IMG/VR virus record: IMGVR_UViG_2695420643_000029
Length of the DNA stretch: 21,877 nucleotides
Reading direction: 5' to 3' (one strand)
Origin: a virus
Taxonomy: Duplodnaviria > Heunggongvirae > Uroviricota > Caudoviricetes
Positions 9,064-9,884 of this stretch are shown one piece after another (positions within the stretch are counted from its first letter, which is position 1; each line of letters opens with the position of its first letter). The position numbers were made by a program, and so were the translations under genes. The notes under the pieces are model-generated. The model made no database searches and was not told the origin of the DNA. It was given only the letters and a program-made list of their open reading frames with translations.

Positions 9064-9481
9064 GTAACGCTGCGAGCGTTACAAGGTGAAAACAAATGGC
9101 TTCAAACTGGATAAAGCTCGAGGTTATTACGCCGGATAAGCCGGAAATATTCAGGCTTGCTGAGATTCTGAATATTGATCCAGATGCCGCATTAGGGAAG
9201 GTTATTCGCTTCTGGGCATGGGCGGATCAACAAATGATAGACGGTAATGCAGATTGTAACGCTCGCGGCGTTACAAAAAGTGCAATAGATCGCATCTCTT
9301 TTATGGCTGGTTTTGCTGATGCGTTAATTCAGGTTGGATGGCTGGTCGAAAATGACGTTGGGTTTTCTCTACCTAACTTTGAACGCCATAACGGAAAAAG
9401 CTCTAAAAAACGGGCGGTTACAAACGAGCGAGTTACAAAAATACGTGAACTGAAACGAAAAGGTAACGCTGCCGGCGTTAC
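9064..9481. repeat. Iteron-like 19-bp palindromes GTAACGC-N5-GCGTTAC (9064-9082, 9256-9274, 9463-9481) plus degenerate half-sites (about 9414-9439, 9498-9504); candidate ori
   Basis: Three perfect 7-bp-arm palindromes with identical arms; first overlaps the initiator SD, the others lie inside the initiator coding region. Confidence 0.6.
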
Positions 9482-9884
9482 ACAAACGGATCAAAAAGCG
9501 TTACCAGAGGAAGAGGAAGAGGAAGATCTAAATACTGATCTCCCCCTAAATCCCCCTCGCCAAAAACGAGCGTCTAAAAAATTCGAGCCGGAGGCTATTG
9601 AGCTGCCCGATTGGTTGCCGGAAACACTCTGGCATGAGTGGGTCCGGTTCAGACAGGCATTGCGAAAACCGATTCGAACGGAGCAGGGCGCTAACGGGGC
9701 GATACGGGAACTGGAAAAATTCCGTCAGCAGGGTTTTACACCTGAGCTGGTGATTCGAAACAGCATCGCCAATGAATACCAGGGCCTGTTCGCGCCGAAA
9801 GGTGTTCGGCCTGAGACGTTGCTCCGACAGGTTAACACCGTCTCGTTGCCGGACAGTGCGATCCCGCCAGGCTTCAGGGGGTAA
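9096..9884 (+). CDS. ydaU: Replication initiator / replisome organiser (lambda-O-like, YdaU-like)
   Basis: 262 aa; AGGTGA SD; followed by DnaC-like loader; contains iteron-like repeats and an acidic EEEEEED stretch. Confidence 0.75.
   Translation: MASNWIKLEVITPDKPEIFRLAEILNIDPDAALGKVIRFWAWADQQMIDGNADCNARGVTKSAIDRISFMAGFADALIQVGWLVENDVGFSLPNFERHNGKSSKKRAVTNERVTKIRELKRKGNAAGVTQTDQKALPEEEEEEDLNTDLPLNPPRQKRASKKFEPEAIELPDWLPETLWHEWVRFRQALRKPIRTEQGANGAIRELEKFRQQGFTPELVIRNSIANEYQGLFAPKGVRPETLLRQVNTVSLPDSAIPPGFRG

Follow-up and report, generated by a model that had tools for sequence, protein, structure and literature searches.

The window analysed here, a 21,877-bp stretch of DNA (IMG/VR record IMGVR_UViG_2695420643_000029), is a Rac-like lambdoid prophage of Escherichia coli, and our subject is a group of palindromes and an adjoining polypurine tract that lie within, and immediately upstream of, its replication initiator gene. 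An original prediction, made from the letters of the DNA, had described the palindromes as candidate iterons of a replication origin. The features on which the analysis draws are listed below.

9017–9522, plus strand: exchangeable "specificity cassette" that comprises the intergenic region, the N-domain coding sequence, the three palindromes and the purine tract
9064–9082, no strand: site 1, GTAACGCTGCGAGCGTTAC, with 9-bp arms TGTAACGCT/AGCGTTACA at 9063–9083
9083–9088, plus strand: Shine-Dalgarno sequence AAGGTG of the initiator gene, read from the sequence, with the ATG at 9096
9096–9884, plus strand: replication initiator gene, 262 amino acids (aa)
9244–9250, plus strand: possible degenerate outer half-site GTAATGC, 12 bp to the left of site 2 (tentative)
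9256–9274, no strand: site 2, GTAACGCTCGCGGCGTTAC, within the sequence that encodes the N-domain (aa 54–60)
9463–9481, no strand: site 3, GTAACGCTGCCGGCGTTAC, where the N-domain ends and the linker starts (aa 123–129)
9497–9505, plus strand: additional half-site of the right-arm type, AGCGTTACC, following the right arm of site 3 at 23 bp
9506–9526, plus strand: polypurine tract AGAGGAAGAGGAAGAGGAAGA, encoding EEEEEED; proposed unwinding or single-strand-binding element
9527–9559, plus strand: A/T-rich stretch TCTAAATACTGAT followed by two C5 runs (CTCCCCCTAAATCCCCCTCG)
9891–10637, plus strand: DnaC-like helicase loader (YdaV-type), presumed partner of the initiator C-domain

The pattern searched for, GTAACGCNNNNNGCGTTAC (that is, GTAACGC-N5-GCGTTAC), has three exact matches, at 9064–9082, 9256–9274 and 9463–9481, and occurs nowhere else in the window. 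None of 100 dinucleotide-preserving shuffles of the window gave any match (three observed versus zero expected), which confirms the palindromes as originally predicted, and a separate repeat finder arrived at the same family of three copies, spaced 192 and 207 bp apart. The spacers within the palindromes are 5 nt each (9071–9075, 9263–9267 and 9470–9474). The half-site GCGTTAC occurs eight times in the window against 2.15 expected, and seven of these eight copies fall within 9064–9504. Sites 2 and 3 are read in the same frame (xGT AAC GCx xxx xGC GTT ACx) and encode the peptides NARGVT (aa 55–60) and NAAGVT (aa 124–129), so the repeated N-A-x-G-V-T motifs that had been noticed in the protein are also borne out. 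Site 1 is non-coding; it lies in the 77-nt intergenic region between ydaT and the initiator gene, 14–32 bp upstream of the start codon, and rather than overlapping the ribosome-binding site, as had been proposed, it ends at 9082 and abuts the Shine-Dalgarno sequence at 9083–9088.

The half-sites required more revision than the palindromes did. The copy at 9498–9504 had been called degenerate, yet it is a perfect GCGTTAC, and together with the left arm of site 3 it makes a 9-bp perfect inverted repeat, GGTAACGCT (9462–9470)/AGCGTTACC (9497–9505). Site 3 and this half-site span aa 123–137, between the modelled N-domain and the DnaT-like C-domain, a placement that the family as a whole retains. 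Two degenerate half-sites reported further upstream, GCGGTTAC at 9414–9421 and GCGAGTTAC at 9427–9435, do exist, but they are not conserved in distant homologues (the V113 codon is GTT in just 9 of 19); they were rejected as parts of the element and probably do not belong to it. In five homologous loci (L002, L003 and L120–L122) the position equivalent to the tentative outer half-site at 9244–9250 is occupied by an exact GTAACGC that precedes the palindrome by 12 bp, and the window copy differs from it by one mismatch. Directly after the last half-site (…GCGTTACC) comes the 21-nt all-purine tract, and the window has no longer run of either purines or pyrimidines. The element as originally drawn did not single out what is probably its core, namely site 3, the half-site at 9498–9504 and the polypurine tract at 9506–9526.

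Conservation of the palindromes as DNA

We assembled a homologue set of 234 loci from species genomes, IMG/VR and metagenomes, together with 13 annotated phages. All homologues with the same N-domain (class A) keep both in-gene palindromes, at approximately +149/161 and +347 to +392, and the palindromes persist down to about 50% protein identity with the same arms and unrelated spacers. Their carriers include Rahnella, Pectobacterium, Xanthomonas phage CP2, Ralstonia phage QkW1, Pseudomonas phage VW-6S, a Stieleria (Planctomycetota) chromosome and several metagenome-assembled genomes. The two Planctomycetota homologues, one on the Stieleria magnilauensis chromosome (L004) and one in a metagenome-assembled genome (L005), show 48–53% identity and have identical GTAACGC dyads and an identical purine tract, an unusually wide host span for exact DNA motifs. 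A consensus of 42 sites is a 19-bp dyad, GTAACGCT-N3-AGCGTTAC(A), and a GTTAC half-site follows the palindrome by 11, 12 or 23 bp in nearly all homologues, where it abuts the purine tract. Full dyads are separated by 192–231 bp in class A and by 276–300 bp in class B (the epsilon15 class); the spacing of roughly 200 bp, which had been regarded as unusual, is thus a conserved trait of the family and not an oddity of this prophage. Site 1 has a narrower distribution: a copy is found at −31/−32 in the E. coli clade and at −41/−42, with differing spacers, in the approximately 70%-identical loci L120–L123, and it is absent from more distant homologues.

Codon usage was compared among 19 class-A representatives that share less than 88% DNA identity with each other and derive from E. 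coli, Rahnella, Pectobacterium, Stieleria/Planctomycetota, Xanthomonas, Ralstonia, Pseudomonas and metagenome-assembled genomes. Four of 53 conserved degenerate amino-acid columns use one codon without exception. Three belong to the arms of site 2, with GGT (18/18), AAC (19/19) and GTT (19/19), and the fourth is Leu136 in the half-site at 9498–9504, which is TTA (19/19) although any of six leucine codons would be possible. In the other 49 conserved columns the commonest codon accounts for 26–94%. Variation within the E. coli clade, assessed across 74 unique sequences, follows the same division, with 7 of 42 arm positions variable at a mean minor-allele fraction of 0.003, 13 of 15 spacer positions variable at 0.058, and other third codon positions at a mean of 0.032. 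Site 1 behaves likewise in these sequences, with arms varying at 2 of 14 positions and the spacer at all five. The spacers outvary the neutral third codon positions (0.058 versus 0.032), as would be seen with hairpin-loop mutation hotspots or diversifying pressure. Site 3 lies in another frame in five lineages (L006, L126, L128, L129 and L138), where it encodes V-T-x-x-A-L rather than N-A-x-x-V-T, and the encoded amino acids vary (G/S/R/C) where the first base of a codon falls outside the arm.

Because synonymous codons in the arms are fixed, the spacers are free to vary and the reading frame differs in five lineages, selection acts on the DNA and not on the peptide. The palindromes are non-random and under strong purifying selection at the DNA level. 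The original prediction had staked its reading on the conservation of the palindromes in homologous initiator genes, and they are indeed conserved as DNA, in thousands of related replication genes of phages and far beyond what the protein needs.

Site classes, the specificity cassette and the polypurine tract

Members of the family with divergent N-domains (31–47% identity) have other dyads at equivalent positions. A GTCCGC-N7-GCGGAC dyad is found in epsilon15, SPN1S, phiPSA1, RPZH6 and BUCT711, and a related dyad, TGTCCGCAT-N3-ATGCGGACA, in Cobetia phage Carin1; sites of this GTCCGC class often consist of four half-sites, two copies of the left arm followed by two of the right. Ralstonia phage Raharianne has GTAGACG-N6-CGTCTAC, and a Vibrio phage has GTCAC-N9-GTGAC. 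The complete epsilon15 genome has just two copies of the dyad, neither of them outside the replication gene, and no purine run longer than the tract; the epsilon15 record is carefully annotated and has no origin marked. The site sequence thus changes together with the N-domain.

The same association is evident where related phages and prophages have exchanged this part of the gene. A blastn comparison of the window with the Rac prophage of E. coli K-12 gives 92–93% identity on both sides and no homology across 9017–9522, with the alignment resuming at 9523. Ralstonia phages QkW1 and RPZH6 have flanks that are 87–97% identical and, between them, a dissimilar block at +25 to +399 of the gene; the QkW1 block holds a GTAACGC-type N-domain with its sites, the RPZH6 block is of the GTCCGC type, and the swap ends exactly at the tract. 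Judged from these alignments, the N-domain and its sites behave as one specificity cassette, in the manner of lambdoid O/ori hybrids. A separate rearrangement is seen in L262 (IMGVR_UViG_3300045988_040153), in which a GTCCGC-class gene has a deletion between its two palindrome clusters (MAGDWIKMRADLHTHPKVVRMASASEADKKRTREEKRRE…) that looks like the product of recombination between the repeated sites and removes most of the N-domain.

The tract is likewise widespread. Among 28 representatives, 22 have a purine run of at least 14 nt in this region, and in 21 the run (15 nt or more in each) directly abuts the last half-site; the tract takes the form (GAGGAA)n or AGAGAAGAGAAGAGAAGAGAAGA, and site 3, the half-site and the tract constitute a module conserved across the family. 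The exact 23-mer AGAGAAGAGAAGAGAAGAGAAGA is present in at least 120 IMG/VR contigs. Of 111 such contigs that were listed and had enough upstream DNA, 86 encode the N-domain family of the window initiator, and 83 of these 86, picked by the tract alone, have a perfect palindrome no more than 75 nt upstream, with half-sites of the form GTnnC (classes GTCCGC, GTAAC, GTCAC, GTAGAC, GTCCCC and GTGACGTCAC). The other 25 comprise three defective family members (L262, with its deletion, and the frameshifted L375 and L376), one contig without a clear gene, and about 21 that encode other N-domains, namely Lin1244_N (PF14297), Phage_rep_org_N (PF09681), weakly DUF1376-like or unassigned ones. Loci of other families with the exact tract include L259, L272, L278, L287, L296, L299, L304 and L328, and the examples inspected have direct repeats of their own right before the tract, such as GTCCCGAGA in three copies or TCCGAAAATCCGGAC in three copies.

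The arginine codon within the tract is always AGA, even where a phage otherwise favours G+C-rich codons, as CP2 and QkW1 do, which argues for selection on the DNA of the tract. The reading frame of the tract was considered as further evidence of such selection and rejected, as its 5-nt period yields a cyclic REEKR peptide in every frame. An all-purine variant encoding EEEEEE occurs in E. coli. In many homologues the tract is followed by an A/T-rich stretch and then by CCCCC(C)-N3-5-CCCCC(C). These paired C-runs (9540–9559 in the window) lie 15–25 bp after the tract, are often succeeded by GGGGG, encode PPxNPP and are also present in K-12 ydaU. CCC is a rare proline codon in E. coli, and the paired runs may be another DNA-level element of the origin.

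One may postulate that the tract is a shared and portable origin core, common to at least four initiator families without detectable mutual similarity: the Pfam-less family of the window, Lin1244_N, Phage_rep_org_N, and the DUF1376-like or unassigned group. We put this forward tentatively, as a possibility rather less probable than its negation. In all of these families the tract stands at the end of the N-domain coding sequence, in hosts that range from Enterobacteria to Planctomycetota and with differing helicase-loading partners, and hhalign comparisons of the window protein with a Phage_rep_org_N protein and a Lin1244_N protein gave no significant similarity. If the proposal were true, a conserved component would recognise the tract or one of its strands, as opposed to the tract merely being easy to melt; the tract would double as a recombination joint for the exchange of specificity cassettes; and sequence alone could suffice to find the origins of thousands of phages.

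The initiator protein and its prophage context

The initiator consists of a winged-helix-like N-domain (aa ~1–120), an acidic linker and a DnaT-C-like domain (aa ~170–262). It matches phrog_2509, annotated as "replication initiation protein", at 2.6e-86, and phrog_678, annotated as "O-like", over aa 99–236 only. A Pfam scan of the protein found no family at E ≤ 0.01, and NCBIfam likewise gave no family for the N-domain. The region at aa 170–262, which takes in the terminal PDSxIPPGFRG, resembles the C-domain of E. coli DnaT (2ru8_A, E = 1.6e-4; 9zbt_D, 5e-4); the NCBIfam match to DnaT is faint. An AlphaFold model of aa 1–140, built from a 25-sequence alignment, has a mean predicted local distance difference test (pLDDT) score of 71 and places helices at 16–25, 29–46, 61–68 and 73–80 and a beta-hairpin at 83–90. 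Its low-confidence segments (pLDDT <50; aa 50–55 and 123–136) are where the in-gene palindromes are encoded, and the model therefore suggests that the in-gene sites sit where a constraint on the DNA would cost the protein least. The most conserved protein segment across all site classes is a different one, aa 93–113 (9372–9437, PNFERHNGKSSKKRAVTNERV), whose invariant residues are H98, N99, G100, K104, R106 and R112. This segment is not part of the winged-helix core of the model and might perform a function that all classes share, for example contacting the shared purine tract or single-stranded DNA (ssDNA).

The N-domain family is large, with 6,654 clusters (50% identity) at E ≤ 1e-3 and 4,093 at E ≤ 1e-10. 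Among 5,426 complete E. coli genomes, 1,539 match positions 8900–10000 of the window, many O157:H7 and other Shiga toxin-producing E. coli being nearly identical there, and in the matching E. coli genomes RefSeq labels the gene "hypothetical protein". Beyond the initiator, the gene content of the window is as follows.

7768–8232, minus strand: helix-turn-helix (HTH) repressor
8298–8612: YdaS-like gene
8596–9018: YdaT/CII-like gene
elsewhere in the prophage: integrase, RecT and RecE-like exonuclease
remainder of the prophage gene set: DUF1627, DUF977, NinB, Q and lysis genes

The loader encoded at 9891–10637 matches PF01695 (IstB_IS21, 1.3e-19), NCBIfam PRK12377 (1.2e-153) and phrog_50 (DnaC-like helicase loader). 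Gene order is the same as in the YdaU-YdaV module of K-12 Rac, the site of oriJ, with a racR-like repressor, ydaS, ydaT, the initiator and a ydaV-like loader, and the two prophages share the loader and the C-terminal ~120 aa of the initiator. Against K-12 YdaU, BLASTP aligns aa 96–262 only, at 63% identity, with the last ~100 aa nearly identical; overall the C-terminal half of the initiator is about 90% identical and the N-terminal ~95 aa do not align. The K-12 protein differs in having a DUF1376 (PF07120) N-half, to which the window N-domain is unrelated (an hhalign comparison of the N-domain profile with the N-half of K-12 YdaU gave a probability of 0.15), and its gene has no GTAACGC dyads. 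The label ydaU that the gene had been given thus holds for its C-terminal half, which is YdaU-like, but not for its N-terminal half, which is not DUF1376/YdaU. At 1972–2078 of the K-12 MG1655 Rac locus (L240), within ydaU and just before homology with the window resumes, AGATGTTCAAACA occurs four to five times in direct and inverted orientation; such repeats could be the binding sites of oriJ, the Rac origin.

A candidate origin inside the initiator gene

The arrangement described above is probably a lambda-style replication origin lying inside the initiator gene, in which dimers of the N-domain bind the dyads and in which site 3, the following half-site and the tract form the core. We infer from the comparisons which protein binds the sites, that the DNA is unwound there and that the origin fires. 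The lambda-like character claimed originally is retained insofar as the DNA is conserved and dyads within the gene accompany a purine tract in the linker, but the sites do not form tandem iterons, and the tract had been missed. In the mechanism we propose, the palindromes would be sequence-specific sites for dimers of the winged-helix-like N-domain. The initiator would bind site 3 and the half-site and would bridge or wrap to sites 2 and 1 some 200 bp away, which would strain and open the purine/pyrimidine-asymmetric tract. The DnaT-like C-domain would then hold ssDNA and/or recruit host DnaB through the DnaC-like loader encoded by the adjacent gene; across the family, the partner genes that follow the initiator encode DnaC-like, DnaB-like or lambda-P-like loaders or helicases. 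Sites 1 and 2 would be auxiliary, and the conserved distal dyads, about 200 bp apart, could have an architectural role, contribute to copy control or form roadblocks to transcription.

The lambda origin, as described functionally, has O-binding iterons and an AT-rich tract inside gene O (PMC7466680). Its resemblance to the window locus extends to several features. In both, the origin lies within the initiator gene, in the linker between a DNA-binding N-domain and a loader-recruiting C-domain; inverted repeats of about 18 or 19 bp are followed by a strand-asymmetric purine run; the N-domain and sites swap as a specificity cassette among related phages; and a helicase-loader gene comes next. Inspected directly, lambda has four 18-bp iterons (435–519 of L256) and an 18-nt purine run, AAAAGAAAAAAGAAAAGA, about 20 bp after iteron 4. 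The two systems differ in that lambda has four tandem iterons some 20–24 bp apart, whereas here one dyad and one to three half-sites stand by the tract. The window family has additional full dyads at a distance of 192–231 bp, or as much as 300 bp in the epsilon15 class; these are found within the sequence encoding the N-domain and, for the clade of the window, also upstream of the gene. Its tract is G+A-rich, not AT-rich, its C-domain is DnaT-like, and its partner is DnaC-like rather than lambda P. An hhalign comparison with lambda O gave a probability of 0.1, that is, no detectable homology.

Other systems share parts of this plan. Bacillus phage SPP1 has its oriL within gene 38. Like the window initiator, the G38P-type replisome organiser of SPP1 (Pfam Phage_rep_org_N) combines an N-terminal DNA-binding domain that has sites in its own gene with a C-terminal part that recruits a helicase loader, and metagenomic proteins of the Phage_rep_org_N or Lin1244_N type have the same 23-nt purine tract, preceded by repeats of their own. 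Plasmid iteron origins also place several initiator-specific sites by an unwinding element, and distant copies there could handcuff or control copy number, as might be the case here. They differ in having tandem direct repeats of 17–22 bp, where the present sites are dyads, widely spaced, in a coding region and without DnaA boxes. Plasmid-type iterons were accordingly rejected as a description, the dyads being 192 and 207 bp apart; the term iterons, used originally, is better replaced by dyad sites with flanking half-sites, as there is no tandem direct array. A plasmid search returned only two records, of which the one inspected (NC_015459.1) is a circular phage genome. Filed as a 41-kb "plasmid" of Pusillimonas sp. 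T7-7 (L257), it is a complete phage genome with integrase, capsid, tail and lysis genes, in which the initiator and loader are the only evident replication genes; its sites consist of one GTAAC-N9-GTTAC dyad and a degenerate second site with flanking half-sites, and its purine tract is 29 nt long. The outcome of this search lends weak support to autonomous replication.

Several observations weigh against an origin of this kind, and the interpretation should be read with them in mind. Only one full dyad adjoins the tract, compared with four tandem iterons in lambda, the window contains no DnaA boxes, and at 40–45% G+C the tract is not markedly AT-rich. The same REEKR peptide results from every frame, and part of the conservation of the tract could therefore lie at the level of the protein. 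The sites are inside the N-domain coding sequence, so their co-inheritance with the N-domain is partly automatic. Inter-site distances show no significant helical phasing (R = 0.53 versus a null 95th percentile of 0.61), which leaves looping unsupported, and the 198/209/219/231 series of spacings is mostly explained by 12-nt half-site duplications. In Xanthomonas phage CP2 (L255), additional clusters at gene starts hint at a regulatory use. We found no literature on binding, unwinding or replication for any member of the family, and a search of the mostly non-subscription literature on oriJ/Rac, the replication regions of Eru-type Shiga toxin phages, ydaU/ydaV and epsilon15 found no description of the sites, of the tract or of an origin belonging to this initiator family.

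The CP2 clusters bear on an alternative in which the palindromes are operators that throttle the replication operon, by roadblock or autoregulation, with the origin elsewhere or independent of the sites. Each of the two clusters, which lie outside the replication gene, has a GTAACGC-N5-GCGTTAC palindrome and, after it, two direct CGTTAC copies at 11–12 bp; one, at 5976–6018, lies just upstream of the start of open reading frame (ORF) 9 and the other, at 34141–34184, over the start of ORF30 on the minus strand. The initiator could use them as secondary origins or as targets for regulation. Site 1, too, is placed as an operator might be, in the only non-coding gap of the operon, and it is conserved in two sub-clades. 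A promoter scan found none near site 1, which leaves a roadblock as the only obvious mode for such an operator. We nevertheless regard this alternative as unlikely, as site 1 is missing from most of the family while the in-gene sites and the junction of sites and tract are near-universal, pure operators would need no conserved polypurine tract abutting them in an inter-domain linker, and the complete epsilon15 genome has sites only inside its replication gene. The original suggestion of autoregulation through the copy at the ribosome-binding site found no direct support, given that a protein bound to DNA cannot occlude the ribosome-binding site of an mRNA and that a hairpin would leave the Shine-Dalgarno sequence free. 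A regulatory side role of the upstream copy is possible, however, considering its retention in two sub-clades and the position of the CP2 clusters, and the roles of operator and origin are compatible rather than exclusive. It is also conceivable that the sites are bound by another protein, be it a host factor, the CII-like YdaT or a downstream HTH/DUF1627 protein, since they would travel automatically with the N-domain in whose coding sequence they lie. This we judge very unlikely: the site class tracks the N-domain clade across Enterobacteria, Ralstonia, Vibrio and Planctomycetota, although the neighbouring genes are wholly different (a cytosine methylase, a KilAC antirepressor, Rha, a CII-like gene or none). 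QkW1 and RPZH6 have the same flanking genes, yet N-domain and site class both switch between them, and a host factor could not account for at least six site classes within related hosts.

The dyads could alternatively act as nucleic-acid hairpins, either as mRNA stem-loops that influence stability or translation, or as ssDNA or cruciform signals for primosome assembly or priming. Each can form a 7–9-bp stem, an RNA hairpin is predicted at site 1 (z = −2.5 for the 76-nt region), and complementarity is kept between classes (GTAACGC/GCGTTAC, GTCCGC/GCGGAC and GTAGACG/CGTCTAC); the four half-sites of the epsilon15 type, two left and then two right, could form an extended hairpin, site 3 is terminator-like on the minus strand, and the initiator has a DnaT-like domain. 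Within a class, however, the arms are frozen without compensatory drift while the loops vary, which is the signature of base-specific recognition by a protein. Extra half-sites stand unpaired and asymmetric at one or two helical turns, as in the left-right-right order at site 3, the Shine-Dalgarno sequence falls outside the predicted mRNA hairpin of site 1, and 7-bp stems are short for cruciform extrusion. An Rfam scan of 8800–9800 gave no match, and we attach only a very small probability to this account. The terminator-like score itself, given by the minus strand from 9481 to 9463 and the following CTTTTCGTTT, is weak; the A-rich flank is loosely conserved and the resemblance is probably incidental. 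Finally, the repeats might have no function as DNA and simply reflect a peptide motif, (G/C)-N-A-x-(G/S)-V-T. The hexapeptides are similar and in the same frame, and the motif recurs at aa ~50–59 and ~110–129 in most of 143 representatives. Against this stand a copy at 9064 that is non-coding, the variation of residues (G/S/R/C) outside the arms and the location of both motifs in low-confidence loops, and the complete fixation of synonymous positions together with the change of frame in five lineages effectively refutes a purely peptide-level explanation.

A lambda-style origin formed by the dyads and the tract thus remains the reading we prefer. The general plan, in which an origin inside the initiator gene combines dyads, a tract of asymmetric strands and a cassette that can be exchanged, is classical and already known from lambda. 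Features that differ from lambda and appear to be undescribed are an N-domain without detectable homology to O, single dyads distributed over about 400 bp, sites laid over disordered coding segments, and a G+A-rich tract that seems to be common to several initiator families.

These results provide a candidate origin for a very common class of Rac-like prophages of E. coli and Shigella, and equally for a large Pfam-less initiator family of some 6,650 clusters at 50% identity, which RefSeq labels "hypothetical". They offer an example of DNA sites overlaid on a coding sequence, located in disordered loops and tolerant of changes in frame while their synonymous codons are frozen. The site classes (GTAAC, GTCCGC, GTCAC, GTAGAC and others) represent natural pairs of initiator and site specificity with which recognition codes may be studied, and the polypurine element of several initiator families could serve as a sequence marker of phage origins.

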